IMG/VR virus record: IMGVR_UViG_2562617113_000011 | Coordinates: 1-10,451 of that record | Reading direction: 5' to 3' (one strand) | Origin: a virus | Lineage: Duplodnaviria > Heunggongvirae > Uroviricota > Caudoviricetes | DNA: 10,451 bases | Part shown: piece after piece, positions 1 to 10,451 of the stretch | Layout of the letters: each line of letters starts with the position of its first letter | Position numbering within the stretch: the stretch's first letter is position 1 | The notes under the pieces: model-generated | Database searches by the model: none | What the model was told of the DNA's origin: nothing | The model's input: only the letters and a program-made list of their open reading frames with translations | Made by a program: the position numbers and the translations under genes

Positions 1-372
1 TTATCGCCGTAACCGCTCCGGCTTCTTCCACTGGTACGTAATTTTTTCTTTCTCCTGGTACATCTGCACGCGGCGACGGTACGACAACATCTCCAGAACT
101 CTGGTGCGTATGTTGCGTATATCCACGCCATTAAGCTCGATACCGTCACGGCGCATCACCTCAGCCATCACACGCGCGTAATTTTCAGCGGTGACTGTAT
201 CCGGCTGCGTGGCCTGTTCGTCAGCCTGCTGGCTGATTCCGGTAATACTGCGGATTATCCCGAGCGCTTCGGTCTCGGTCATGGTCATGGCCTCCATAGT
301 GATGGCGGGTCCTCCTGGTGGGGTGCCCTGCCACGGGGCGGGAGCATCGCGGAAAAAGGCTAGTTTTTGCAT
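1..372 (-). CDS. Hypothetical protein downstream of the small terminase gene (123 aa as drawn; more likely about 93 aa from an internal start at 282)
   Basis: Complete ORF whose stop codon is the first 3 nt of the window. The ATG at 372 has no convincing SD; the in-frame ATG at 282 is preceded by GGAGG with 8-nt spacing. No family recognised; a short QPDTV motif weakly recalls lambda gpFI but is insufficient to call. Confidence 0.45.
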   Translation of the reverse strand: MQKLAFFRDAPAPWQGTPPGGPAITMEAMTMTETEALGIIRSITGISQQADEQATQPDTVTAENYARVMAEVMRRDGIELNGVDIRNIRTRVLEMLSYRRRVQMYQEKEKITYQWKKPERLRR

Positions 373-491
373 TTTTATTCGTCATCACCACCAATGCAAT
401 ATATTGATATGACTTGATGTTTTATTTTTCGGTGTCGATTTCGATTGTTTTTTGTTCATCACTGACGCATAACTCCCACCAGCGCAACGCT

Positions 492-515
492 GAAAGCCAG
501 TCAGTAAACTGGCTT
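492..515 (-). other. Stem-loop (8-bp stem AAGCCAGT/ACTGGCTT, 6-nt loop) just 3' of the small terminase gene; weak U-tract
   Basis: Perfect inverted repeat seen directly in the 162-nt gap between the TerS stop (534) and the next gene. On the minus strand it is followed only by UUUCAG, so it is an attenuator or stabilising hairpin rather than a strong terminator. Confidence 0.3.
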
Positions 516-533
516 CGGTCATTGTGCACTACG

Positions 534-1076
534 TTACTTGTCTTTATCCGGCTGAAACTTATCAGGCACATTTCCGGTAGTTTCCATCAGATAATCGGAC
601 AGCATTCGCGGGATGTTTTCATCAAGTTTTGTGCATGCGTTACAGGCTCTGACAACTTCTTTTTTCAGGCCATCCAGCATGGCGGGGGTCATCTGTGGGA
701 AGCGCCTTTGCATGGTAAGCGGCAGGCTGTCCATGATAGATGAAATCTGACTCGCCAGTTTTGAAAGCGCATATATACAAAATTCCGTACTAATCACGTC
801 GCCGCGTTCGCGCTCGTTTTTAAGCTCCTGCGCCTCCGCCTGCGCTGTCAACAATCTGATCCTGACTCGCAAAAGCTCATCATTATCAATCTCGCCTTTG
901 TCGTCTGTAATCTGGTTAATTGCATTGCTAACCCGATTGTCTATTACGCTGGCAACATCATAAAACGCCTCGCGGCCTTTACGTTCAACGGGAGTCACTC
1001 CCCACTTGTCGAACGCTGTCGCACTTACACGGCAGCTTTGCGCCATGTTTTTTTTGTTCATCAGGTGCGATTTCAT
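534..1076 (-). CDS. Terminase small subunit, lambda Nu1-like (180 aa)
   Basis: The C-terminal two-thirds aligns closely to my recollection of lambda gpNu1 (e.g. AQAEAQELKN, LPLTMQRRFP, LDENIPRMLSDY); the N-terminal DNA-binding region is divergent. Start chosen at the ATG at 1076 (GGGGA SD, 5-nt spacing); alternatives are GTG 1088 and ATG 1061. Confidence 0.8.
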   Translation of the reverse strand: MKSHLMNKKNMAQSCRVSATAFDKWGVTPVERKGREAFYDVASVIDNRVSNAINQITDDKGEIDNDELLRVRIRLLTAQAEAQELKNERERGDVISTEFCIYALSKLASQISSIMDSLPLTMQRRFPQMTPAMLDGLKKEVVRACNACTKLDENIPRMLSDYLMETTGNVPDKFQPDKDK

Positions 1077-1181
1077 CAATATCCCCACTTAAGTAATGTT
1101 TCAGGTTGGTGTATTTGTTTTATCTTTCCCTTTTTATTCATAGAGATAGAGCGAACAACAAAACCACCACCAGCACCCGAA

Positions 1182-1228
1182 AAAGGCTCATAAATAGCGA
1201 AAACCCGCGCGTCTGCCGCCCCGTAACG
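1182..1228 (-). other. Lambda-like cos site (cosN-like 12-mer GGGCGGCAGACG at 1210-1221 on the minus strand, flanked by lambda-identical sequence)
   Basis: The minus strand reads CCGTTACG-GGGCGGCAGACG-CGCGGGTTTTCGCTATTTATGA. As I recall it, lambda reads GTTACG-GGGCGGCGACCT-CGCGGGTTTTCGCTATTTATGA, so the 22 nt after the 12-mer are identical and 5 of 12 overhang positions differ. It lies directly upstream of the Nu1-like gene, as in lambda. Confidence 0.6.
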
Positions 1229-1277
1229 GGTCCATATGCCGGAAAGGACCCGCCAGCCAGAGCGGGCCCTAATTTCA

Positions 1278-1622
1278 TCAACCAATCAACTTATTGCGCC
1301 CTTTCAGGGCATTACGCCTGGCGCGTTCAATCTTGAGGCATAACGCCGCATCAGGTTTTTCGGGGGTGGGAACAAGGCAATAATTTGATGCGCGCGGAAT
1401 GTTGTTAATCCACGCAACAACTTCGCTTAAATACCATGCCTTGCGGCCTTTCGTAACCTGTACGCGTTCGGGGAACTCTCCGCGAGCCTCAAGGTTTAGC
1501 AATGTGCGACGGCTAAGGGTTGTAAGCTCCACTACCTGATCCATATCGACAAGACGCTCGCTTAAGCGCATTTTATCATCGATATCTAATAGCTCTCGTA
1601 GCTGACTATCTCTTTCAATCAT
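1278..1622 (-). CDS. AlpA/excisionase-family HTH DNA-binding protein embedded in the head/packaging operon (114 aa)
   Basis: The central segment LVDMDQVVELTTLSRRTLLNLEARGEFPERVQVTKGRKAWYLSEVVAWI fits the AlpA/Vis pattern (hydrophobic-T-x-LSRsT-x(6)-G-FP ... W ... EV-x-W). ATG at 1622 lies 9 nt after the D-like stop, with GAGG overlapping that stop. Confidence 0.55.
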   Translation of the reverse strand: MIERDSQLRELLDIDDKMRLSERLVDMDQVVELTTLSRRTLLNLEARGEFPERVQVTKGRKAWYLSEVVAWINNIPRASNYCLVPTPEKPDAALCLKIERARRNALKGRNKLIG

Positions 1623-1631
1623 TCTCGTACC

Positions 1632-1973
1632 TCACACACGTGCCAGCGGCTGAACAGAAATACCTGAGCCAACAAACGCAGCAACTTTTGCTGATAGTTG
1701 TGTTACAGACTCAGGCCAGTTCAGAGCATCAACATTTAAGACGCCGGTTTTATAAACCTGAGCCTGCGTTTTTGTCGCTGTATCGATTTGTACAGCGGAA
1801 ACATAAACAGCTTTGCCTGCGCTCGTTCCATCCCATACCACCAGTGCACCAGTTACATCTTCTTGCATCAGTGGCGTAAACGCAGGGATTACCCCTTTAT
1901 TGGCTGAAAATATCCCCAGCGTAGTAACCAGTGCTTCAGTGCCAGCCATGAGTTCAGTGTAATGAGTAGCCAT
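1632..1973 (-). CDS. Head decoration protein, lambda gpD-like (113 aa)
   Basis: Size and motifs match remembered lambda gpD (PAFTPLM, VVWDGT, LNWPE, AFVGSGISV). Sits immediately downstream of the E-like gene (9-nt gap) with an AAGGGGGAG SD. Confidence 0.75.
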   Translation of the reverse strand: MATHYTELMAGTEALVTTLGIFSANKGVIPAFTPLMQEDVTGALVVWDGTSAGKAVYVSAVQIDTATKTQAQVYKTGVLNVDALNWPESVTQLSAKVAAFVGSGISVQPLARV

Positions 1974-1982
1974 TGCTCCCCC

Positions 1983-3023
1983 TTAACCAATGCGAACGGT
2001 AACAAAACGATTGATGCGGGCCGGTATTGGCTGTGGTGCAGAGTGCGTTTGTACGTACTCAATAGCCGGATCACCTGGTACGATGTAATTTTTCGGCGCA
2101 AGTTCGGCTTTAGTAAGCCCCATTCTGATTAACTCAGGATCCTGAATGCCACCGTAGGCAACGATGCCCTGTAATGATGTGTTGCCAAGCACCATCAAAT
2201 CAGGATCAAGGAAATATCTTTCAGTTCCGTCCTCGTCGGTATAACGTCCGCTATATACCACAATAGCAACATCGCCAACGTAACCCTTGAAGCTTACAGA
2301 ATCCCCAAGATTTTTCAGGGCCGTTTCAAGAACGGAATTAGATCCCCGTCGAGTATCAAGGCAATCTTTTACTGCTTTAAAGGCGCGGTATTTTTTCCAT
2401 ACGTTGCGGCCCATTACGATGATATTTGTAGTACCTTCGCTGATTTCTGCGTACTCTTCGATGTCATCGTTTGGATCAAATGTTGATAAATCTCTACCGC
2501 CCCACTCCGTACCGCCGAACTGCGTGATAATATTTTGTGGTTTTATATTCCAGTCCAGTTCATAACGTTCAATTCCATCGCCTTCAATGATATTTTTCCC
2601 CGTTGTAACCGCCTGAACAGCAAGCCACTCAATACGCGCACGAATTGCCTGCGCTTGTCTTACTAACGCTCGCTTTATTTTGAAACTGCGTGATGAATAT
2701 GCATTGAATTGTTCCGGTGATACGCCTGGTTGACGAACGGCTATTTTATTTGGGTCGATACTACTTTTTGGCTTCATATAGCCAGGACGAATTACTTTTG
2801 ATTCGTAGCCTTCATCGCGTGAGACTTTGCTACCAACCATAGGGGAACAAAATGCAGCCATCGGGATGTCTGGATCGTCAATAATATCAAGCGCAATATC
2901 CCGCGTCTCAAATGTAACGACTCGCTTAAAAAACAGGTTTATAAATAAAGAATTAATCTGCCATTGAATATCTTCGGCATTAACAACCTGTATTAACATA
3001 GCTGGTGAATATAAATCACTCAT
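1983..3023 (-). CDS. Major capsid protein, lambda gpE-like (346 aa)
   Basis: Long collinear similarity to remembered lambda gpE (NIITQFGGTEWGGRDLSTFDPNDDIEEYA, FKAVKDCLDTRRGSNSVLETA, GDVAIVVYSGRY, MVLGNT, VPGDPA); 346 aa against 341 aa for gpE; AAGAGG SD 4 nt before the ATG. Confidence 0.85.
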   Translation of the reverse strand: MSDLYSPAMLIQVVNAEDIQWQINSLFINLFFKRVVTFETRDIALDIIDDPDIPMAAFCSPMVGSKVSRDEGYESKVIRPGYMKPKSSIDPNKIAVRQPGVSPEQFNAYSSRSFKIKRALVRQAQAIRARIEWLAVQAVTTGKNIIEGDGIERYELDWNIKPQNIITQFGGTEWGGRDLSTFDPNDDIEEYAEISEGTTNIIVMGRNVWKKYRAFKAVKDCLDTRRGSNSVLETALKNLGDSVSFKGYVGDVAIVVYSGRYTDEDGTERYFLDPDLMVLGNTSLQGIVAYGGIQDPELIRMGLTKAELAPKNYIVPGDPAIEYVQTHSAPQPIPARINRFVTVRIG

Positions 3024-3207
3024 ATAACCTCTTAATACTTAGTAAAAGTGTCGCGTTAATTTTATCATCTGCCTTGTTCGGCATCTTTATGCATTGCTAT
3101 GCAATAGTGTGCAAAGTTTCAATCTTCGTTTATTTATCCGGCGTTACGTGTCATTCTGTACAGCGTTACAAGTTCAAAGACATAAATTATTCTCTTTGGT
3201 GATGAAA

Positions 3208-3234
3208 GGGTCGGAATATTCCGGCCTTTTTTTT
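3208..3234 (+). terminator. Intrinsic terminator on the plus strand (hairpin GGUCGGAAUAUUCCGGCC followed by T8)
   Basis: Palindrome CGGAATATTCCG extended by G-C and G-U pairs, then TTTTTTTT at 3227-3234. No convincing plus-strand CDS lies upstream. Confidence 0.55.
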
Positions 3235-3256
3235 GCGTGGTGTGACGGACTAAACT

Positions 3257-3281
3257 GATAAAAGCCGGATTGCTCCGGCTT
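3257..3281 (-). terminator. Intrinsic terminator ending the SSB operon (stem AAGCCGGA/TCCGGCTT, loop TTGC, then UUUUAU on the minus strand)
   Basis: Perfect 8-bp GC-rich stem located 15 nt after the SSB stop; the minus-strand read is followed by a T-run. Confidence 0.6.
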
Positions 3282-3295
3282 CTGTCACTCGTTGC

Positions 3296-3718
3296 TTAAA
3301 ACGGTATGTTATCCCCGTACGGATCATCGTTACCCGCCTGTTGTTTTGCCCTGTTCAGTGCGTCAGTAGCCTGCCCCTGCTGGCCTTTTTTGCCGCCCGG
3401 TCGCACCGTTCTCGCACTGATTACGCTGTCTGCGATAACCTGCCAGCCCTGCCGCGTTTCGCCGTTCTGGCCTGTCCACTGGCTTACCTGCATGTTACCC
3501 GCCACGCTCACCAGTTCGCCTTTGTGGTGTTTTGCCAGTGCGTCGGCCTGTCTGCCAAACGCCAGGACAGATAACCACATCGTCGCCGTTCCGTCATTTG
3601 CCTGGCTGCATGGCAGGGGAACCGCCATACTCGCCATCGCCATTTGTGTCCCTTTGCTGGTGGTCTTTAACTGCGGGTCAGCCACCAGCCGCCCGTAAGC
3701 CGCTATCTGTGCTGTCAT
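3296..3718 (-). CDS. ssb: Single-stranded DNA-binding protein (140 aa)
   Basis: OB-fold SSB pattern (GRLVADPQLK ... WLSVLAFGRQAD ... GELVSVAGNMQVSQWTGQNGETRQ), a Gly/Gln-rich linker and a C-terminal DDPYGDNIPF resembling the canonical SSB acidic tip DDDIPF. ATGA start/stop overlap with the upstream gene. Confidence 0.75.
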   Translation of the reverse strand: MTAQIAAYGRLVADPQLKTTSKGTQMAMASMAVPLPCSQANDGTATMWLSVLAFGRQADALAKHHKGELVSVAGNMQVSQWTGQNGETRQGWQVIADSVISARTVRPGGKKGQQGQATDALNRAKQQAGNDDPYGDNIPF

Positions 3719-3993
3719 GCTGTCTGCTCTCCGGTTTTAACATTGATGGTTGTCACCTGTTCCGCTTCGGCAATCTCCCGTTCTGTCAGCGTGGCAAAGT
3801 TTGCTGCCGCCGTTGTCATGAATGCGCTTATCAGGTCGGGATGTTCCTTCGCGTATCCTTCCCCCGCGTGGCGGTCTATCGTTCTGATTGCCACCTTTAA
3901 AGCGTGCTCTGTCATGTCTAACGCGCGATATTTCGGCTCTGTTCTGTCTCTGCGTTTTTTGAGTGATTTATTAAATCTCCCTGAAGTGTGCAT
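3715..3993 (-). CDS. Hypothetical protein, basic N-terminus (92 aa), translationally coupled to ssb
   Basis: ORF with a GAGGGGG SD upstream of the ATG at 3993; its stop overlaps the ssb start (ATGA). No family recognised. Confidence 0.5.
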   Translation of the reverse strand: MHTSGRFNKSLKKRRDRTEPKYRALDMTEHALKVAIRTIDRHAGEGYAKEHPDLISAFMTTAAANFATLTEREIAEAEQVTTINVKTGEQTA

Positions 3994-4040
3994 ATTTATT
4001 TTTACCCCCTCGTTTAAAAAGTTTTGAGTTGTGCCTCCCC

Positions 4041-4268
4041 TTGTCTACCTTATCTACCTTAGTGGCCCCTATGCCAGTAATGGCGCGGCTTTCAGCGGGG
4101 TAGAGTGCTTTTATCCACTATCTACTCCGTATCTACCTCCCTGTCTGATTCAGGTAAAATCAGGTAGAGAGGGTAGACAGTGGGTAGACTGTAAAAAAAG
4201 GCTGTCTACCTAACTTAATATACTGAATTAAATGTATTTTCCTTTACTCAGGTAGACAGGGTAGACAG
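4041..4268. repeat. Iteron cluster, putative origin of replication: about 9-bp GGTAGACAG/CTGTCTACC repeats in both orientations flanking an AT-rich spacer
   Basis: Direct copies at 4163-4171 (GGTAGAGAG), 4172-4180, 4183-4191 (GGTAGACTG), 4251-4259 and 4260-4268. Inverted copies at 4041-4049 and 4202-4210, with degenerate TCTACC units at 4051-4058, 4119-4127 and 4131-4137. AT-rich stretch at 4211-4250. Lies immediately 3' of the primase gene. Confidence 0.65.
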
Positions 4269-4281
4269 CAATTACAAAAAA

Positions 4282-6036
4282 TTATAAAAACGCGTCGCAC
4301 TCGTCTGTTGTTATTGCGTTAGTCTGCGTTACCCCCTTAACTTTCCGCGTAATATATTCATGTCCATAAACTTTTGCGGCAGGCTTCATAGCCTTGCCAA
4401 AGTCATTTACGTTTAGCGGTTTGCTCCTGCCTGCGTATGCCATAAACGCCAGATAGACGCGGTAAAGGCTGTTCCTGGTCGTGTACTTCACTGAATCACC
4501 ACCGCCCCCCATCATCAGGCCGCGCGCTTCCTCCAGAAAATTCAGGAACTGGCAAAACTCAATAACCGGATCCGTCTGTTGCTTTATTGCCAGTGCTTCA
4601 TCACCGTCACGCTGTTCCAGTAGTAAAGCCCGTGCCTTCTCAGGGTCGGTAAAGTTCGCCAGCAATCGGCGGATAATAACGGGGATTTCAGCCGCAATCT
4701 TTTCCGGTAGCTCCCTGTCTTTTTCGGCATCACTGACGATATTGTCGAAACGGAAAATCACGCGACGACGTGCCACACCTCCGGCCCGTTCGGTGAATAT
4801 CATCGGGTTGTTGTTGGTCGCCAGCACCACCGCCCTGATTACCGCCGTGAAACGCTTTTCATATTTCGGGTTAATTTCCACGGGGTCGCCGCCTGTGATT
4901 TTCTTGATGCCCGTTCCTTCGCCTGTATATTTCGGCTGGTCAGCCAGGACGATAAGACGACTCCCGACAACCTGCGCACGTCCACCAGCATCATCAAGCG
5001 ATGTCATTTCAGCGCTTACCGTGTTCTGTTTCCCTGCCAGAAGGCTGGCTATGTGTGTGAATGTACTTTTACCGCTCCCGCCGTCTCCGGTGGCCTCAAT
5101 AAACATCTGCCAGTCGTACCGGTTCGCCATAATCATGTACAGCGCGGCACATATACGCATCATCTTGCGCGGGTCTTTTCCGGCTGCGTGCTCAAGCCAT
5201 TTATGAAAGTTTGGCGCGTTATCGCGGATGTTTTCCCCTGGTGCTGGTAGCGTGTACTCAATGCCGTTGTGCGTGGTGATCCAGTTCTCCGGCGTGTGCG
5301 GGGAAAATTCCCCCGTTTTCAGGTCAAGCGCACCATTGGCGAACGGCAGCAAATCGCCGGACGGCTCGCCCATTGGTTCGGCAATAACTTTTAACGCTTC
5401 CACGGCGTTATTGATTACGCGCTTGCTGAAAGTGGCCCTGTGCTCTGAATAGATCGCCACCATTTCGCGGCTAAGTTCCATTGTGCTGACCGGACACCAT
5501 ACCCCGCCGCGCCATACGTGAACGATTTCACTTTCAGGATGTACGCAAACGCCATCAAAGCGATCGGCAAGCAGCTGCGCGCGCTCACTGTCCGCCATCT
5601 GCGAAAGTTGCGCCTTTTGCTTTACCGGAAGCTCAATGACCAGACCATCAGAAAGATTCTGGCGCTCACGGGCCAGATATTCGCGCCAGTTCTCCACCTT
5701 CTGACCGTGCATACCGTCAGGGTAAAAATTTGCATCCTGTACGCCTGCCGCCGCCAGCTTCTGACCAATTGCCTTTATCATTACAGGCGCAAGATATCCG
5801 GCCCTGTATATGCGTGCTGATTTTCGGCCTTCCGGCACAATTTGCAGCTTATCCAGTTCGGATAACTGCTGCTCCCCAAGCCACACAGGAGGCTCATTAT
5901 CTCCGGCCATACGCGCATCATGTTCCTGCCATTGTTTCGCGTGTGCCCAGGCATCACTACCCGCAAAAATAATGACTTCTGTTCCTTTGTGTTTTATGCC
6001 GCGTGACTGCTGTTTTACGTTCGGTGCCAGTTTCAT
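4282..6036 (-). CDS. P4-family primase/helicase replication initiator (584 aa; Walker A GDGGSGKST, SF3-type NTPase)
   Basis: P-loop GDGGSGKST and a following hydrophobic Walker-B-like stretch RLIVLADQ; overall resemblance to the helicase/C-terminal part of P4 alpha and PICI pri-rep proteins; N-terminal region possibly toprim-like. ATGA overlap with the upstream gene. Confidence 0.85.
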   Translation of the reverse strand: MKLAPNVKQQSRGIKHKGTEVIIFAGSDAWAHAKQWQEHDARMAGDNEPPVWLGEQQLSELDKLQIVPEGRKSARIYRAGYLAPVMIKAIGQKLAAAGVQDANFYPDGMHGQKVENWREYLARERQNLSDGLVIELPVKQKAQLSQMADSERAQLLADRFDGVCVHPESEIVHVWRGGVWCPVSTMELSREMVAIYSEHRATFSKRVINNAVEALKVIAEPMGEPSGDLLPFANGALDLKTGEFSPHTPENWITTHNGIEYTLPAPGENIRDNAPNFHKWLEHAAGKDPRKMMRICAALYMIMANRYDWQMFIEATGDGGSGKSTFTHIASLLAGKQNTVSAEMTSLDDAGGRAQVVGSRLIVLADQPKYTGEGTGIKKITGGDPVEINPKYEKRFTAVIRAVVLATNNNPMIFTERAGGVARRRVIFRFDNIVSDAEKDRELPEKIAAEIPVIIRRLLANFTDPEKARALLLEQRDGDEALAIKQQTDPVIEFCQFLNFLEEARGLMMGGGGDSVKYTTRNSLYRVYLAFMAYAGRSKPLNVNDFGKAMKPAAKVYGHEYITRKVKGVTQTNAITTDECDAFL

Positions 6037-6332
6037 TTTTTACCCCTGAATCCGTTAATCATGGTTTTCAGCTTCTGGATGTTTGCCCGTGCCCTGGCGT
6101 TGCTGGTGGGCACGTTATGCGGCGCGGTCTGTACCAGAGAAAAATCACGGGCAAACTGATAAACAGGCATCACGCAATCATATTCGTAACCTTCACGGCG
6201 GTAAGTTACGCGCCGTTCCTCCACGCCCTTAATCATTACCGTGCCGCCGTACTGGTCGCGGTAAATATCACCGCGCATGAATTTAGTGCGAGTTTTGCCG
6301 CTGGCAGTTAAGCCAGGATATTTAAGTTTCAT
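6033..6332 (-). CDS. Hypothetical protein immediately upstream of and coupled to the primase (99 aa)
   Basis: GGAGA SD 9 nt before the ATG at 6332; stop overlaps the primase ATG. Its position matches that of P4 Cnr-type replication modulators, but this is positional inference only. Confidence 0.5.
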   Translation of the reverse strand: MKLKYPGLTASGKTRTKFMRGDIYRDQYGGTVMIKGVEERRVTYRREGYEYDCVMPVYQFARDFSLVQTAPHNVPTSNARARANIQKLKTMINGFRGKK

Positions 6333-6337
6333 TATTT

Positions 6338-6571
6338 TTATTCTCCGGTGTGCTGTTCTTTATATCTGTCGTGCAATAGGTCTATTTCTTGTAGTTCCAT
6401 TATTACAGGCTCAAGAAGCGTTATTAATGCCGTGACAATTCGGGATTTTTGTTTGTCGCGTTCATTATCGCCAAGCGTTTCAAGCCATAAGCGCAATATT
6501 TCCAACATGTTTTCACTGTGAGAAAGTGCAAGAAATGCGCGGTCTATTGTTTCGTGGTAAATATCACGCAT
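6338..6571 (-). CDS. Hypothetical small helical protein (77 aa)
   Basis: GGGGA SD 5 nt before the ATG at 6571; 1-nt gap after the upstream gene's stop. No family recognised. Confidence 0.5.
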   Translation of the reverse strand: MRDIYHETIDRAFLALSHSENMLEILRLWLETLGDNERDKQKSRIVTALITLLEPVIMELQEIDLLHDRYKEQHTGE

Positions 6572-6572
6572 A

Positions 6573-7025
6573 TTAATCCCCGTCCGTCGCTTTTCTTAAA
6601 ATAACCTCTGTCACGAAATCAGCATAATCGGCGGCAATATTCAGTACATCAAGTCCCGTTGATTTATATTCTTTCGTGGAAAGTAAGAAAAAATCCGCTC
6701 TAATAAGTTCTGGCATTGACGAAAGCGCATCAGCCGCATCACCAGGAACGCCGGAAAATTCCTGTTTCAGGGCATTAAAACGATCATCACGCATAACCCC
6801 CCCATTTTCACAATCAGTAATCAGGATGGCTTTAGCCTCATTCAGTGCCATATCAGCACTAAATTGCATAACAGCCAGTGAGTGAGGAACGAAAGCCCCG
6901 GCATATTCTGTTTCGCTGGTGGCGTGCTTATGTGCCCTGTCCGCGATAACAGAAATATCAATCAGCGCGTGCATCAGCGTTTTGATGGCTTCGGCGGCTG
7001 CGTCCTGACGGGTGTTATTGCACAT
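6573..7025 (-). CDS. Hypothetical protein (150 aa)
   Basis: Strong AGGAGG SD 6 nt before the ATG at 7025. The longer 300-aa ORF in the track is an R/P/S-rich upstream extension and was rejected. Start overlaps the stop of the upstream gene by 11 nt. Confidence 0.55.
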   Translation of the reverse strand: MCNNTRQDAAAEAIKTLMHALIDISVIADRAHKHATSETEYAGAFVPHSLAVMQFSADMALNEAKAILITDCENGGVMRDDRFNALKQEFSGVPGDAADALSSMPELIRADFFLLSTKEYKSTGLDVLNIAADYADFVTEVILRKATDGD

Positions 7026-7557
7026 GGCGCACCTCCTGACGAATACGGGCGGCGAATACAGCGACACAACCGGACGGGCAATGGTTACGCGCTTCGCGTT
7101 CCGTCCAGGCGGTGACGTGGATGATTTGGGATTCTGACGCGCCAAAGATGATAAAGCGCCAGATAAAGACAGTGTGAGAATGTATAAGGGTAGGGATAGT
7201 AGCCATGTTGGCAGCCTCCTTTGACAGTGAAGAATTTCCACCGCAGGAAACGCCAATTTCGCTGGCGGTGGACTGAACGGGGTTGGCGTAACCGGCGTCA
7301 AAGGGAACCGGCGCTTCCGAAGAAGCCCCCGCCCAGCCCACCATAACTTTGATGTGAGCGAATGCGGACGATAAAAAAGACGCTGGCGCGTCATATATCG
7401 CCTTTGACATTTCCAAGACGCCAATCCCGGCACCAGATTTTGCTGGTGCGGGTAAATCATAGCCCTGGCTGGCATTGGCGATCAACAGGTTTTTTACATC
7501 GGGTTTATTCAGGTTGTGCGAGTCCCGCCCTTGCGGGTGTGTGGTATGATTTAACAT
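7015..7557 (-). CDS. First gene of the replication operon: Ash-family-like N-terminal region fused in frame to an Icd-like (host cell division inhibitor-like) C-terminal region (180 aa)
   Basis: The N-terminal half carries motifs I associate with P4-like Ash proteins (AKSGAGIGV, MVGWAG, PVPFDAGYANPVQSTASEIGVS). The C-terminal 63 aa (FIWRF ... ESQIIHVTAWTEREARNHC ... AVFAARIRQEV) resembles Icd-like proteins and has its own AAGGAGG SD before an internal ATG at 7206. GAGGT SD before the ATG at 7557. Family assignment is from memory. Confidence 0.5.
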   Translation of the reverse strand: MLNHTTHPQGRDSHNLNKPDVKNLLIANASQGYDLPAPAKSGAGIGVLEMSKAIYDAPASFLSSAFAHIKVMVGWAGASSEAPVPFDAGYANPVQSTASEIGVSCGGNSSLSKEAANMATIPTLIHSHTVFIWRFIIFGASESQIIHVTAWTEREARNHCPSGCVAVFAARIRQEVRHVQ

Positions 7558-7649
7558 AGCTACCTCGATACTTCTGCTATCGTTGGTGGTTAGAAGCCCT
7601 GCGAGTGGTAACGACACTTGCGGGGCTTTGCATTTATGCGCCTTGATAA

Positions 7650-7730
7650 TTTTAAGGTGTGGCCCACTATATGTTTTAGGTGTGGCCCACGTCAAGAGTT
7701 TTATTTGTGCTTTTTCTGTGTATACTGTCC
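7650..7730. promoter_or_regulatory. Divergent promoter/operator region: two 13-bp direct repeats AGGTGTGGCCCAC (7655-7667, 7678-7690) overlapping candidate sigma70 promoters on both strands
   Basis: Minus strand: -35 TTGACG (plus 7690-7695), 18-bp spacer, -10 TATAGT (plus 7666-7671), so both repeats fall in the -35/spacer/-10 region. Plus strand: -10 TATACT (7721-7726) with upstream TGTG, 30 nt before the RHH-like gene. Each repeat contains the dyad GTGG-C-CCAC. Confidence 0.55.
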
Positions 7731-7756
7731 CCCACCAATCCACCAGAGGAATAGAA

Positions 7757-7936
7757 ATGGCAACGGGTACAACAAACGCAAAATCACAAGCTCTAAAGGC
7801 TCGTGTACCACACGAAATAGTAAACGCCATGGAATCAGTGAAAGAATCAGGCGAAAGCACATCACAATTCATCATTACGTCAATGCAAGGCGAGATCAAA
7901 CGCCGCCAGCGGCGCAAGGCCAAAGAGCAGGAGTAA
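7757..7936 (+). CDS. Small DNA-binding-like protein, possibly ribbon-helix-helix (59 aa); candidate repressor acting at the adjacent repeats
   Basis: GAGGAA SD 6 nt before the ATG; the N-terminal segment KSQALKARVPHEIVNAMESV resembles an Arc/CopG-type strand-helix; basic C-terminal tail. Fold is inferred, not computed. Confidence 0.55.
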   Translation: MATGTTNAKSQALKARVPHEIVNAMESVKESGESTSQFIITSMQGEIKRRQRRKAKEQE

Positions 7937-7993
7937 CCATCACCAGCGCTGTGGTGCGGTGAACTGTGGCGCACTGGGTTACAGGTATCTACG

Positions 7994-8191
7994 ATGACTG
8001 ACAAATCATTAAAGAAATTATCCTCATCCAGGAAAAAACAACGCAAAAATGCGGTAAGCGAACAAGAACAGGAGAGATTTGCGCCATGTGCGTTTGCCCT
8101 TGAGAAGTTCTTAAAAGAGTACAGGCGCACAAAAATGGGGTCGCATACCTGGAAAACATCGCGGCATGGCAATGTTAAAGAGCAGGAATAG
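7994..8191 (+). CDS. Hypothetical highly basic small protein (65 aa); coding status uncertain
   Basis: ORF following the RHH-like gene in the same orientation with a weak SD (AGGT, 7-nt spacing); K/R-rich, no motif recognised. A plus-strand terminator follows at 8295-8322. Confidence 0.35.
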   Translation: MTDKSLKKLSSSRKKQRKNAVSEQEQERFAPCAFALEKFLKEYRRTKMGSHTWKTSRHGNVKEQE

Positions 8192-8294
8192 CCCACCAGC
8201 AAGCCAGCACACTGATCACATTGCCCACCAGCCGCAAATGTGGCATTGTTGGCAATGCTCATGCGTTGGGGATAACGTGTAGCTTGTGTCGAAG

Positions 8295-8322
8295 GGCCAC
8301 CGTAGCGGGTGGCCTTTGTTTT
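8295..8322 (+). terminator. Intrinsic terminator for the small plus-strand operon (stem GGCCACC/GGTGGCC, then TTTGTTTT)
   Basis: 7-bp GC stem with a 6-nt loop followed by a T-rich tract on the plus strand only. Confidence 0.55.
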
Positions 8323-8360
8323 GCCTGTTATCCGGCAATTGTGGCGCTTCGCTACACGGT

Positions 8361-8446
8361 TGATATAATCCCACTGCACTGATTCATTTTTTGCGCAGTA
8401 GGTTAATTGTTCGCAAGGGCGCTCCGGCAACGGGGCGCTTTTTGTT
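8361..8446 (+). ncRNA. Candidate small RNA unit: extended -10 promoter (TGaTATAAT, 8361-8369) followed about 50 nt later by a strong intrinsic terminator (8419-8446)
   Basis: Perfect TATAAT preceded by TGn; hairpin GCGCUCCG-GCAA-CGGGGCGC (GNRA-type loop) followed by TTTTTGTT; no ATG-initiated ORF between them. Lies on the opposite strand just past the 3' end of alpA. Confidence 0.3.
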
Positions 8447-8473
8447 ATGTTCATCGCGTTACGCCTCACACCA

Positions 8474-8680
8474 TTACGCAGCCGTTCCGCGCGCTTCTTC
8501 CTCGCGCTCTTTCAGCCAGGCCAGCACTTCATCTTCATACCAGCCAACACGACGCAGACCGATTTTGAAGCCTTTCGGGAATTTTCCTGCGTTGATCATG
8601 TCCTGTAGCGAACTGTCTGCCTTGATGCGCAGAATATTTTTTACTTCCTGACGGGTAAGTATTTTTCTGATTGTTTCCAC
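8474..8680 (-). CDS. alpA: AlpA/Vis-family phage transcriptional regulator / excisionase-like protein (68 aa)
   Basis: HTH pattern LRIKADSSLQDMINAGKFPKGFKIGLRRVGWYEDEVLAWL typical of AlpA; GTG start at 8680 with GAGGT SD 8 nt upstream; position next to the integrase. Confidence 0.8.
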   Translation of the reverse strand: METIRKILTRQEVKNILRIKADSSLQDMINAGKFPKGFKIGLRRVGWYEDEVLAWLKEREEEARGTAA

Positions 8681-8813
8681 TATGTTTTACCTCGTTAATC
8701 CGGCGTATTCCGGTGATAAATACGGTAAAACAGGGCTGGGCGGGAAAAACAGTACCCACCGTTTTAAAACGGTATCCACTGTTTTTTATCTCATTGATTA
8801 CGCTTTTCTTTCT

Positions 8814-8846
8814 GCAAAAAAATAGCGACCGCAAAGGGCCGCTATT
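8814..8846 (-). terminator. Intrinsic terminator after the integrase-proximal small gene (10-bp stem with one mismatch, then a U6-8 tract on the minus strand)
   Basis: Inverted repeat AATAGCGACC/GGCCGCTATT (8821-8846) followed on the minus strand by an A-run on the plus strand (8815-8820), i.e. U-tract. Confidence 0.55.
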
Positions 8847-8850
8847 GTGA

Positions 8851-9093
8851 TTACCGTTTCCACTTCTTAGGTCGCCCACCGCATTTAAGGCTGGTGGGCC
8901 TCAGCACCTTGTCGATGCTTTCAGCCAGATTTTTCGATGCACCACGCGAGCGCAAAAAACTGACTACCTCGTGTTTTGTGGGGGCTGTTGATTTGTCTTC
9001 CGGATCGTATGTTGACCAGAATTCACGATTTGCCATTAACGCCAGTTGCAGCCCTTCGCCGCAAGCAGGGGATACCTTTTCATTGAAAAACAC
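8851..9093 (-). CDS. Hypothetical protein downstream of the integrase (80 aa), basic C-terminus GGRPKKWKR
   Basis: GTG start at 9093 with AAGGAG SD 8 nt upstream; followed by an intrinsic terminator. No family recognised. Confidence 0.45.
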   Translation of the reverse strand: MFFNEKVSPACGEGLQLALMANREFWSTYDPEDKSTAPTKHEVVSFLRSRGASKNLAESIDKVLRPTSLKCGGRPKKWKR

Positions 9094-9209
9094 CTGGATA
9101 GCTCCTTGAATTTCATGATTTGGGTGACTCCTCTCTGTATTGGGTGGGTTGTGGCGATTATACGATGGTTTAGCATGGTTTGCATCGCTTTTACTGGTTT
9201 TTTGTACAG

Positions 9210-10451
9210 TTACACGGCACGGATACCCCTTTTACCACTGGCTATGGTCACTCCGGTAGCTGCGGCCTCTACAAATTCCCCCCACCAGCGCATAAGCACC
9301 ACGCGCTTTTCCAGGTAGTTACTTCGGTTATATGCTCGCCTTACCTCGTTCGTGTCCACGTGTGCGAGTGCGGCCTCGATTACGTCCGGCTCGAATCCTT
9401 CCTCGTTCGCTGCTGTACTGAATATGGCGCGTAATCCGTGAGACACCAGCACACCAGCGTATCCCATCCGGCGCAATGCAGCGTTAGCGGTCTGGCTGTT
9501 CATTGGCAGCATTGGATTTTTAAGGCTGGGAAAAACATGTTCCCTGTGTGCGCTGATTGGCTTCATTGTTTCCAGTACAGCCATCGCCTGACCGCAAAGA
9601 GGGATCACATGGTCACGGCGCATCTTCATGCGTCCGGCTGGAATCGTCCATGTTTCGGCATCGAGATCTATTTCTTCCCAGCGTGCGGCGGCTGCTTCGG
9701 CTGGGCGTGCTACGGTCAGCAGTTGCCACTCGATTAGCAATCTGGTTTGCCGTTCTATGCTGGCGACCGATAAATCGTGCATTAGCTGCGGTAGCTGTTC
9801 CGGTCGGATGGTTGGCATATGCTTTTTAGTGGGGGAAGGGAATGCCTTGCGGACGTTCGCGGCGGTGTTGATGTCAATCAGCCCACTGTTGGCAGCAAAA
9901 TCCATCACTTCATTGATGCGTTGTAAAACGCGTTTCAGAGTTTCCAGGTTGCCGCGTGCTTTAATGGGTGTGAGTATCTCAACAAAGCGGCGAGCGGTGA
10001 GGGTATCTATTGGCGTGTTTCCGATGTACGGGAATACGTATTTTTCCAGGGATCGCCAGATATCCTTAATCGTGTTGTAAGCCAGATTCTGGCCTTTTTT
10101 CATCTCGTACCAGTCCAAGGCAACTTTTTCGAACGTGTTGCCCTTTTTCCTGCTCTCTGCTTCACGTTTCCGGCGTTCGTAGTCCTGTGGGTCAGTTCCC
10201 TTTGCTATGAGTGACCTGTATTCATTCCGTCGCTCTCTGGCATCAGACAGGGAAACATCATTTAGCGATCCAAGGCTGATAATAGTCCGTTTTTTATCTG
10301 CCGGGCGGTAGTACGTAAAACGCCAGATTTTTGATCCGGAGGGCTTCACCAGAAGAAATAATCCTCCGCCATCCTGCAGGGTATATTCCTTTTCCCCTGG
10401 TCGTGCGTTTTTGATCTCCGTAATAGTTAGTGGGGTGGTTTTTCGTGCCAT
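9210..10451 (-). CDS. int: P4-type tyrosine integrase (site-specific recombinase, 413 aa)
   Basis: N-terminus MARKTTPLTITEIKNARPGEKEYTLQDGGGLFLLVKPSGSKIWRFTYY is typical of P4/CP4-57-type integrases; C-terminal catalytic region with HGLR and the RRAYNRSNY tyrosine motif. The start codon is the last 3 nt of the window. Confidence 0.9.
   Translation of the reverse strand: MARKTTPLTITEIKNARPGEKEYTLQDGGGLFLLVKPSGSKIWRFTYYRPADKKRTIISLGSLNDVSLSDARERRNEYRSLIAKGTDPQDYERRKREAESRKKGNTFEKVALDWYEMKKGQNLAYNTIKDIWRSLEKYVFPYIGNTPIDTLTARRFVEILTPIKARGNLETLKRVLQRINEVMDFAANSGLIDINTAANVRKAFPSPTKKHMPTIRPEQLPQLMHDLSVASIERQTRLLIEWQLLTVARPAEAAAARWEEIDLDAETWTIPAGRMKMRRDHVIPLCGQAMAVLETMKPISAHREHVFPSLKNPMLPMNSQTANAALRRMGYAGVLVSHGLRAIFSTAANEEGFEPDVIEAALAHVDTNEVRRAYNRSNYLEKRVVLMRWWGEFVEAAATGVTIASGKRGIRAV

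Follow-up and report, generated by a model that had tools for sequence, protein, structure and literature searches.

The window, by which we mean the whole 10,451-nt stretch of DNA analysed here, carries on its minus strand the genes of a small mobile element. Pfam searches identified an integrase gene (9210-10451), alpA (8474-8680), a D5-type primase gene (4282-6036) and an SSB gene (3296-3718). A capsid module follows, in which a gpE-like major capsid gene (1983-3023, minus strand) and a lambda gpD-like head decoration gene (1632-1973, minus strand) stand in the order of c1499/c1500 in EcCICFT073, with PF02924/PF03864 hits across 1632..3023. Directly upstream of cos lies a gene for an AlpA-family helix-turn-helix protein (1278..1622, minus strand; PF05930), the product of which matches the AlpA-family entry 8C3T in the PDB (E 4.5e-10). 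We considered and rejected this neighbour as an Rpp protein because it matches AlpA and a PDB sequence search returned no RppC chain for it. The order of features at this end of the element is capsid, decoration, small gene, cos1, terS, inverted cos2 and a 93-aa ORF. The cos2-like site (306..378, plus strand) is degenerate and inverted relative to cos1. It was found by local alignment with a score of 60 (shuffled sequences: mean 19.5, sd 3.3, maximum 37), consists of a cosQ-like CGGGTCCTCC, a 12-mer-like GGGCGGGAGCAT and a right flank with a 10-nt insertion, and has the place and orientation of cos2 in EcCICFT073. The 93-aa ORF behind terS (1..282, minus strand) is 74% identical to the ORF that follows rppA and cos2 in EcCICFT073, and recurs in 77 of the 81 related loci.

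Judged by gene content, the window (1-10451) is an island of about 10.4 kb that belongs to the EcCICFT073 family of Gram-negative, cos-type phage-inducible chromosomal islands (PICIs). It combines the features by which Gram-negative PICIs are recognized, namely a length of 10-20 kb, int, alpA, a primase gene, cos/terS and an attachment site unused by prophages; in E. coli EC43 the island sits between tRNA-Pro/yejM and yejO. A check against the PICI definition found no lysis or tail genes in the island. The hallmarks of cf-PICIs (own terL, portal, protease and head-tail connectors) are also missing, and of the packaging and head genes only those for capsid, decoration and TerS are present. The related islands that we opened hold a steady size of 10-11 kb and a constant order int-alpA-primase-SSB-capsid-cos-terS. 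In none of the 81 related loci is terS followed by terL, as expected of a satellite, and the more distant relatives P0101 and P0110 likewise reside in satellites. Long IMG/VR contigs with this terS were examined as candidate phages and rejected, since none of them carries gpA after terS. One such contig has a gpA fragment upstream of terS, an arrangement consistent with an island that lies within a prophage. Among 5,426 complete E. coli genomes, the cos-terS module was found in 772.

Window 1188-1252, read on the minus strand, is collinear with the lambda cos junction (reverse complement against the end junction of lambda J02459). The cosQ region CGGGTCCTTTCCGG (1239..1252, minus strand) is identical to lambda at 14 of 14 positions and lies at the same distance from cosN; its 7-bp core GGGTCCT (1245-1251) is about 30 bp upstream of cosN, and the region is conserved in the 54 unique island cos sequences. 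After a spacer of 11 bp, the same length as in lambda, GTTACG and GGGCGGC (1215-1227) are also identical, and so is the right flank of cosN, CGCGGGTTTTCGCTATTTATGA (bp 13-34; 1188..1209, minus strand; 22 of 22 positions), which is nearly invariant across the 54 unique sequences of the family. Since these three blocks are exact and keep their order and spacing, we can rule out chance. The alignment agrees with a preliminary description of this DNA that had reported the 22-nt flank and GTTACG-GGGCGGC as identical to lambda. The segment covered by that description (534-1228) does not include cosQ, which is the packaging-termination signal.

Within this conserved frame, the 12-mer that would form the 5' cohesive end, GGGCGGCAGACG (1210..1221, minus strand; bp 1 of cosN = window 1221, bp 12 = window 1210), was assigned by alignment with lambda. 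It had been called divergent from lambda with five differences; the divergence stands, and the actual count is four, with changes from GGGCGGCGACCT at bp 8, 9, 10 and 12 only and a C at bp 11 in both. The left half GGGCGG (bp 1-6) is intact, and the CG pairs that flank both predicted nick sites (1208-1209 and 1222-1223) are kept. By homology, we infer nick positions 12 bp apart with 5' cohesive ends. The left half and the nick-flanking CG pairs are the cosN positions reported to be under selection, while bp 7-12 vary naturally without selection and without effect on cleavage by lambda TerL; examples of such right-half variants are N15 (bp 9 and 12) and Gifsy-1 (bp 8, 9 and 11) (PMC4669245). 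The T12G change adjoins the bottom-strand nick and occurs in N15 as well; the island combines four changes.

Between cosN and terS, the island resembles lambda far less. With up to one mismatch allowed, this region contains no CGTTTCC-type R site, and the sole nearby match lies inside cosQ. In this respect the preliminary description was right to report that lambda-type repeats are missing; the region is not free of repeats though, because an R3-like block lies in it together with an inverted R2-like element. The R3-like block TGGTGGTGGTTTTGTTGTT (bp 50-68; 1154..1172, minus strand) is better conserved than any other block of cosB across the 54 unique sequences. Its position matches R3 of lambda (bp 50-65) and of N15 (bp 48-59, GAGGTTGTTGTT), and its homologous counterpart in the Monarch-like SE11 prophage is GGTGTTGTTTAAT; from its conservation and position we propose it as the primary binding site of TerS. 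The R2-like element ATACACCAACCTGAA (bp 108-122; 1100..1114, minus strand) forms with the R3-like block an imperfect inverted repeat of 13 nt (85% complementary), corresponds to ATACAACAACCTGA in the cosB of the SE11 prophage, and is identical at 14 of 15 positions in all 54 unique sequences despite the variable stretch that surrounds it. The SE11 prophage itself encodes an N15-identical recognition helix and a gpA 90% identical to that of PhiR5_1. The R-like blocks of the island are homologues, with altered bases, of the R sites of an N15/Monarch-like prophage. None of the phage records contains the island cosB; phage matches end at ATTTATGA.

The IHF consensus WATCAANNNNTTR (up to one mismatch) has no match in 1089-1200, including the interval between the two R-like elements. 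An IHF site (I1) between R3 and R2 is a feature of complex cosB only. N15 lacks I1 as well, so this site does not define the whole group (PMC4669245). A putative 21-codon upstream ORF, MNKKGKIKQIHQPETLLKWGY (1076..1141, minus strand), runs inside cosB, and its TGA stop overlaps the ATG of terS (TGATG). This ORF is open in every family variant examined; its conservation may stem from the R2-like DNA site.

The terS gene (534..1076, minus strand) encodes a 180-aa small terminase of the Nu1/N15 family, identified by PF07471 and homology. The Pfam match (81.8 bits, cut-off 30) covers only residues 68-151, and TerS aligns through to the ends of both Nu1 and N15 gp1. The likely start is the ATG at 1076, which is the RefSeq start and collinear with N15 gp1, rather than the GTG at 1088. 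Overall identity to lambda Nu1 is 36% over the full length, distributed as 34% in the DNA-binding domain, 56% across Nu1 residues 86-140 and 34% in the last 41 residues. The closest phage TerS is N15 gp1 (47%, E 2e-55), with about 62% identity in the DNA-binding domain; no phage record contains a TerS of the island type. Residues ~1-56 are predicted to form an N15-like winged-helix domain collinear with the domain of N15 gp1, followed by a short linker and a satellite-specific C-terminal half (residues ~80-180) with the tail NVPDKFQPDKDK. The AlphaFold model of the N-terminus has the order strand-helix-helix-hairpin-helix at pLDDT 70-79; a fold search of the model against the PDB gave nothing significant (best: a MerR-type winged helix, E 0.45), and a PDB sequence search with TerS matched neither a Nu1 domain nor Rpp, RppC entries included. 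Of 80 copies of terS, 79 are intact, and the median dN/dS is 0.16 for the gene as a whole and 0.05 for the part encoding the DNA-binding domain. These low ratios show that the gene is under purifying selection.

Two statements about this protein in the preliminary description need to be modified. The N-terminal DNA-recognition region had been described as divergent; it is indeed unlike that of lambda, but instead of a new region it is a domain of the N15 type. The C-terminus had been described as conserved and Nu1-like, and while homology does extend to the end, the best-conserved part is central and is not the TerL-binding tail: identity to phage TerS is 56-62% in the region of Nu1 86-140 and 29-46% in the last 41 residues. 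The C-terminal half as a whole is 47% identical to that of lambda, a value equal to that between lambda and 21-type TerS, and no phage TerS exceeds 55.6%. Satellites retain this private half even where the DNA-binding domain and cosB are of phage type. The TerS of phage 21 binds its own TerL specifically (PMC9026076). Given this specificity and the divergence of the island C-terminus, binding to the TerL of any particular helper is putative.

The 12-mer was surveyed for its distribution. The exact GGGCGGCAGACG allele is present in 9 of the 5,426 complete E. coli genomes and in none of 50,697 phage records; two of the nine were opened and proved to be satellites, and five more coincide with island matches to the window. 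A scan of species-representative genomes found no base other than G at bp 8 of cosN, and a literature search for variant 12-mers returned unrelated primer sequences only. The canonical 12-mer is found in 62 of 81 sister islands, and where terS is about 99% identical between islands, they differ only in cosN's right half, where the change is a compact patch and not scattered drift. Lambda-like prophages carry GGGCGGCAGGCG, and related right-half alleles occur outside islands too. Islands with the AGACG allele occupy two attachment sites and carry two kinds of capsid module and differing replication modules, indicating that the allele spread after arising. The patch probably came from the WGRCG class of alleles, which circulates among lambda-like prophages as well.

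Taken as one explanation, we think it likely that the AGACG right half is a rare, functionally tolerated allele of a cosN segment free of selection, and that helper TerL reaches cosN through the island TerS, which binds the island cosB. From the sequence comparisons, such recruitment is the likeliest packaging mechanism. Its anatomical basis, a satellite island with lambda-type cosQ and cosN, a non-lambda cosB and its own Nu1-family TerS, agrees with the preliminary description, which had pictured an island with a lambda-like cos free of lambda R-site repeats and a Nu1 homologue, and had suggested that it recruits the helper large terminase. None of the 81 loci has terL behind terS. The packaging module (534-1252, minus strand) comprises lambda-type cosQ and cosN, a private cosB and a full-length small terminase. 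After induction by a presumably lambdoid helper, the island TerS would bind the island R sites through its N15-derived winged-helix domain, the recognition helix of which has diverged from N15 (VSATAFDKW versus SVQAFDKW). The TerS C-terminal half would then recruit the helper large terminase (a gpA-type TerL), which would nick cosN and package island concatemers, with cosQ and cosN of the next copy serving for termination. Helper TerS would be unable to use the island cosB, and packaging specificity would be private to the island. Lambda TerL is functional with a chimeric TerS that joins the DNA-binding domain of N15 to the C-terminus of lambda, and lambda terminase packages N15-specific DNA at ~1e-4 (PMC4669245). 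With this chimera as experimental precedent, a helper TerL directed to a private cosB is the most economical reading.

A more far-reaching version is conceivable, and we hold it tentatively: these satellites may have evolved their own packaging specificity, which would be orthogonal to those of lambda, 21 and N15 and coupled with a C-terminal half of TerS that only satellites have. In that case the N15-derived recognition helix and the R sites (GTT to GGT) would have co-evolved, and the C-terminal half would stay constant while the cassette of cosB and DNA-binding domain is swapped for that of the helper. The private half could capture the TerL of several lambdoid lineages, or it could outcompete helper TerS.

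The same observations might be read differently, with TerS as an Rpp-like adaptor or poison that forms mixed oligomers with helper TerS by way of its conserved central region and blocks helper packaging, with helper TerS still required for carrying TerL to the island cos. The gene occupies the exact place of rppA in EcCICFT073, the region best conserved with phage TerS is Nu1 86-140, an oligomerization domain has been described for the centre of lambda TerS (PMC9026076), and the private C-terminal half is kept beside phage-type DNA-binding domains and cosB. Nevertheless, we regard such a role as unlikely, given that the island TerS is full length, unlike Rpp (139-154 aa, without the last 30-40 residues), and has no similarity to RppA by BLASTP or to any PDB chain including RppC; an Rpp-like role and recruitment of TerL are also not mutually exclusive. 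We think it very improbable that the island is the remnant of a defective lambdoid or N15-like prophage, with terS-cos as a leftover phage left end. Its capsid, decoration and terS genes do have phage homologues, but size and gene order are constant among its relatives, none of the 81 loci contains terL, portal, tail or lysis genes, the architecture is shared with the experimentally mobilized EcCICFT073, and purifying selection acts on terS.

Two further alternatives concern the 12-mer itself. If the divergent sequence were adaptive, it would make the island ends incompatible with those of the helper, or change the quality of cosN as a substrate for worse or for better. With four of 12 positions mismatched, hetero-annealing would be weaker, lambda/N15 hybrids with a 2-bp mismatch gave a four-fold lower viable yield (PMC4669245), and the changes form a compact patch. 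Against this stand the canonical 12-mer in most sister islands, among them pairs with nearly identical terS that differ just by the patch, the rarity of the allele, the related alleles in ordinary lambda-like prophages, and the reported irrelevance of bp 7-12 to cleavage (PMC4669245). Moreover, identical cos sites of the island supply the two ends of its packaged DNA, so annealing to helper ends is not a step of the life cycle. An adaptive 12-mer is therefore improbable, and sticky-end incompatibility with helper DNA, which the preliminary description had put forward as a possibility, finds no support: all changes fall in bp 7-12 and 62 of 81 sister islands are canonical. About as improbable is a decaying cos, in which the altered cosN would leave this copy of the island poorly or not mobilizable. 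Such decay would account for a rare allele found in none of the phage records, and cos2, at a distance of 800 bp, is clearly degenerate; yet cosQ, the left half of cosN, the CG flanks, the 22-nt flank, the R-like blocks and terS are all intact, lambda TerL tolerates right-half changes (PMC4669245), and the identical allele in islands that use two attachment sites and differ in capsid and replication modules points to spread after its origin.

The unusual sticky end is accordingly of narrow interest, as ordinary right-half cosN variation. The module around it reaches further, because it occurs in about one of seven complete E. coli genomes, and Rpp is the only packaging mechanism worked out for E. 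coli cos PICIs. In the literature that we searched, we found no description of a role for TerS-bearing islands. If the island TerS recruits helper TerL directly, it would answer the question raised by Murialdo and Feiss about a TerL-binding satellite protein that dispenses with helper TerS. The islands would also offer natural variants in which helix and R sites are matched, with which the reading of cosB by lambda-like terminases could be studied. Should the private C-terminal half be specialized, it would represent a second mechanism for hijacking cos packaging in Enterobacteriaceae, mechanistically distinct from Rpp.

For comparison with Rpp-type Gram-negative cos PICIs, we used EcCICFT073 and others (Fillol-Salom 2018, 2019; Murialdo & Feiss 2022). 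EcCICFT073 shares with the present island its size, gene order, gpE- and gpD-like genes, inverted second cos and homologous 93-aa ORF, as well as a cos1 with lambda-type cosQ and cosN, an identical cosQ-cosN spacer and a cosB unlike that of the helper. The two differ in cosB (GGTGGTGGT here, ACCACCACC in EcCICFT073) and in the protein encoded after cos1, which is a 144-aa Rpp (rppA) in EcCICFT073 and a 180-aa full-length TerS here, with no detectable similarity between them. Rpp is proposed to lack the TerL-binding tail and to use helper TerS as a bridge; the island TerS does contain the tail region. Neither BLASTP of TerS against RppA nor the PDB search with TerS and the AlpA-like protein revealed an Rpp homologue in the island.

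With lambda, the island has in common cosQ, the left half of cosN, the nick-flanking CG pairs, the 22-bp flank and the layout of cos followed by terS. It departs from lambda by four changes within bp 8-12 and by a cosB without CGTTTCC R sites or IHF consensus. In addition to the low overall identity (36%), the central region of lambda Nu1 has about 20 residues that are missing from the island TerS. The SaPIs, pac-type staphylococcal islands, encode an additional inhibitor of helper TerS (Ppi), of which we identified no counterpart in the island, and their TerS-S belongs to an unrelated family and serves headful (pac) packaging. The logic is nevertheless alike, in that a satellite TerS works with helper TerL on satellite DNA only.

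The closest phage TerS proteins are those of N15 and Monarch-like prophages (Feiss et al. 2015). These phages share with the island a TerS domain with the same helix-to-wing spacing, GTT/GGT-rich R or R-like elements at the R3 position, an inverted R2 as in the SE11 prophage, and a cohesive end that varies in bp 7-12, T12G included. Unlike these phages, the island has no R1 and no terL after terS, its C-terminal half is of the satellite-only type, its recognition helix differs at two residues, and its R-like sites read GGT where the R sites of the phages read GTT. N15 R3 finds a best match of only 8/12 in the island cosB. Because of this poor match and the two altered helix residues, the island is related to the N15 packaging specificity group but probably distinct from it in specificity.

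The reverse complement of the window was aligned with the joined ends of phage lambda DNA (J02459). The two cos junctions are collinear with ungapped spacing, and the lambda-like cos reported in the preliminary description, with its exact 22-nt flank and GTTACG-GGGCGGC, is borne out by this alignment. On the minus strand, the cosQ region (CGGGTCCTTTCCGG, 1239–1252) is identical to lambda and is separated from GTTACG by an 11-bp spacer of sequence unlike that of lambda; GTTACG and GGGCGGC show no difference, and the right flank of cosN (CGCGGGTTTTCGCTATTTATGA, 1188–1209, minus strand) is again identical. The cosN 12-mer (GGGCGGCAGACG, 1210–1221, minus strand) differs from lambda at bp 8, 9, 10 and 12, that is, at four of the five positions between GGGCGGC and the right flank, and not at five positions as first counted. 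With such small corrections, the original observation on cos and TerS is confirmed.

Natural cosN variation in lambda-like phages is limited to bp 7–12 (Feiss et al. 2015; PMC4669245): N15 and phiD326 vary at bp 9 and 12, and Gifsy-1 at bp 8, 9 and 11. Mutations in bp 7–12 have minimal effect, lambda TerL cleaves cosN-N15 as well as lambda cosN, and mismatched ends still cyclise at a four-fold cost; the conserved parts of cos are the left half, the nick-flanking CG pairs and cosQ (PMC4669245). In the window cosN every position under selection is kept and only the free half varies, which is an already known kind of variation. The proposal that the island ends are incompatible with helper DNA is not upheld, because the changes lie in the freely varying bp 7–12 and because both ends of a packaged island come from island cos copies, so that helper-end compatibility plays no role.

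We scanned IMG/VR for the conserved cosN flanks with any five bases between them. Among the 120 matches listed, 118 contained the canonical GACCT and two AGGCG. With G barred at bp 8, eight loci were found: three lambda-like prophages with lambda R sites and Nu1 (GGGCGGCAGGCG), one with GGGCGGCAACCT, islands with AGACG and TGACG, and another E. coli SE11 prophage with AGGCG and a non-lambda cosB. At 81 loci encoding the island TerS type, the canonical 12-mer is present in 62, the remainder carrying GGGCGGCAGACG, GGGCGGCTGACG, GGGCGTCAGGCG, GGGCGGAAGGCG, GGGCGTCGACCT or GGGCGACGACCT. The exact AGACG allele occurs in 9 of 5,426 complete E. coli genomes and was not found among phage records; two matches inspected are islands, five others coincide with island matches to the window, and the AGACG islands use two attachment sites and two different capsid modules. 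Since islands with a TerS ~99% identical and a cosB identical to those of the window keep the canonical allele, the AGACG difference is a patch rather than accumulated drift.

Two sister islands (L131 and L132, 10027–11940 in each) have an identical cos-terS module, AGACG included; there a ClpP-protease/major-capsid fusion gene replaces the gpE/gpD pair, and replication genes and attachment sites also differ. Two different prophages of E. coli SE11 (NC_011415; L127 and L128) have the rare allele GGGCGGCAGGCG and the cosQ–cosN spacer in common, with a lambda-type cosB in one and a Monarch/N15-type cosB in the other. This pairing hints that cosN alleles may be exchanged between co-resident elements.

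The reported lack of repeats holds for CGTTTCC-type R sites, none of which occurs between cosN and terS, but the island cosB does contain two blocks conserved across 54 unique family sequences. An R3-like block (TGGTGGTGGTTTTGTTGTT, bp 50–68) lies where lambda has R3 and N15 has R3-N15 (GAGGTTGTTGTT, bp 48–59), and a second element (ATACACCAACCTGAA, bp 108–122) is its imperfect inverted copy. A Monarch-like SE11 prophage, whose recognition helix is identical to that of N15 and whose gpA shares 90% identity with PhiR5_1 gpA, contains homologous elements (GGTGTTGTTTAAT, inverted ATACAACAACCTGA, plus a third copy) in its cosB, which is the "Monarch-like" complex cosB of Feiss. On this homology, the island cosB is derived from an N15/Monarch-type cosB. 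GGT stands in the island where N15/Monarch-type phages have GTT, a change found alongside two recognition-helix substitutions in the island TerS. No IHF consensus site was found in the island cosB. A 21-codon ORF (1076–1141, minus strand) lies within cosB, its stop overlapping the terS start (TGATG); no family variant interrupts it, and its most strongly conserved codons fall on the R2-like DNA element.

The island TerS belongs to the Nu1 family (PF07471, 81.8 bits, residues 68–151). Its nearest phage relative is N15 gp1 (47% identity, E 2e-55, collinear) and not lambda Nu1 (36%). The DNA-binding N-terminus is divergent as described when compared with lambda Nu1 (34% identity), but it is N15-like, with ~62% identity to N15 gp1 by a by-eye count on the alignment, the same short helix-to-wing spacing, and a recognition helix reading VSATAFDKW in the island and ISVQAFDKW in N15. 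Identity to lambda Nu1 is 56% over Nu1 residues 86–140 and 34% over the last 41 residues (Nu1 numbering), where identity to PhiR5_1 TerS is 46%; over residues 86–181, lambda and 21-type TerS share 47%, equal to island versus lambda. Given these values, the conserved gpA-binding C-terminus holds only as homology. The best phage TerS match to the island C-terminal half reaches 55.6%. Purifying selection acts on terS: median dN/dS is 0.16 across the gene and 0.05 for the DNA-binding domain, and 79 of 80 copies are intact. In an AlphaFold model (pLDDT 68), the N-terminus folds as strand-helix-helix-hairpin-helix and long helices come after it; a fold search with this model returned nothing significant.

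The cos-terS module is present in 772 of the 5,426 complete E. coli genomes. gpA follows terS at none of the 81 loci, and a 93-aa ORF is present at 77. A 57%-identical TerS relative from other Enterobacteriaceae (P0110) is carried by satellites that sit within a prophage capsid gene; at L219–L221 these islands are inserted in capsid gene E of a lambdoid prophage, with a truncated capsid gene after the island, and are helper-embedded PICIs. A 194-aa E. coli variant (P0101; L215, 5780–6585) is a natural chimera: its DNA-binding domain is of PhiR5_1/21 type, with a phage-type cosB to match, and its C-terminal half, tail NVPDKFQPDKDK included, is nearly identical to that of the island TerS. This satellite sits at the EcCICFT073 attachment site (phoQ) and has the cosN GGGCGTCGACCT. 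The cosB-plus-domain cassette is thus exchanged between helpers and satellites, whereas the C-terminal half remains satellite-specific.

The window encodes on its minus strand an integrase, AlpA, a D5-type primase, SSB, a gpE-like capsid protein, a gpD-like decoration protein, a second AlpA-family protein, cos, terS and the 93-aa ORF. The genome nearest to the window is that of E. coli EC43 (98% identity), where the element is a 10-kb island between tRNA-Pro/yejM and yejO. The stretch least covered by the closest genomes (~6570–8470; EC43 coverage 79%) has long ORFs without annotation (300 and 484 aa) in place of the several small genes, some Icd-like, found in relatives. A cf-PICI identity was rejected because terL, portal and protease are absent. 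The right end of EcCICFT073, an E. coli PICI studied experimentally, reads capsid c1499, decoration c1500, a small gene, cos1, rppA (144 aa), an inverted cos2 and a 93-aa ORF. Since gene order, the 93-aa ORF (74% identity) and the cosQ–cosN spacer CATATGGACCC of cos1 match, the window is an island of the EcCICFT073 family, with terS and another cosB in place of rppA and its cosB. As in EcCICFT073, a second cos is inverted: a degenerate cos2-like sequence (306–378, plus strand; 12-mer GGGCGGGAGCAT) just upstream of the 93-aa ORF retains cosQ-like and left-half bases and has a 10-nt insertion in the right flank.

The most economical reading is that the island replaces the helper TerS. Island TerS would bind the island R sites and recruit helper TerL to the lambda-type cosN, and the island cosQ would serve in termination. 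A lambda–N15 hybrid (N15 domain and cosB, lambda C-terminus and lambda TerL) demonstrates that such an arrangement is functional (Feiss; PMC4669245); N15-type cosB is not usable by lambda terminase (Feiss; PMC4669245). The preliminary interpretation is thus supported in part, for a private cosB with its own TerS but not for incompatible ends. How TerS-bearing E. coli PICIs function is not described in the literature searched, and a 2018 survey mentions only the presence of a terS homologue in some Gram-negative PICIs. The element is a member of this known class, with an N15-like DNA-binding domain; a satellite-specific TerS lineage with altered R sites is the moderately interesting point. Replacement of the helper TerS differs from the mechanism proposed for Rpp, which would lack the TerL-binding tail and need helper TerS as a bridge, although an Rpp-like component may exist if island TerS forms mixed oligomers with helper TerS. 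The candidate Rpp site of EcCICFT073 cos1 (ACCACCACC, bp 55–63; L212 ~2574–2582) is the reverse complement of island GGTGGTGGT (bp 51–59, window 1163–1171); nonetheless, island TerS has no detectable sequence similarity to RppA.
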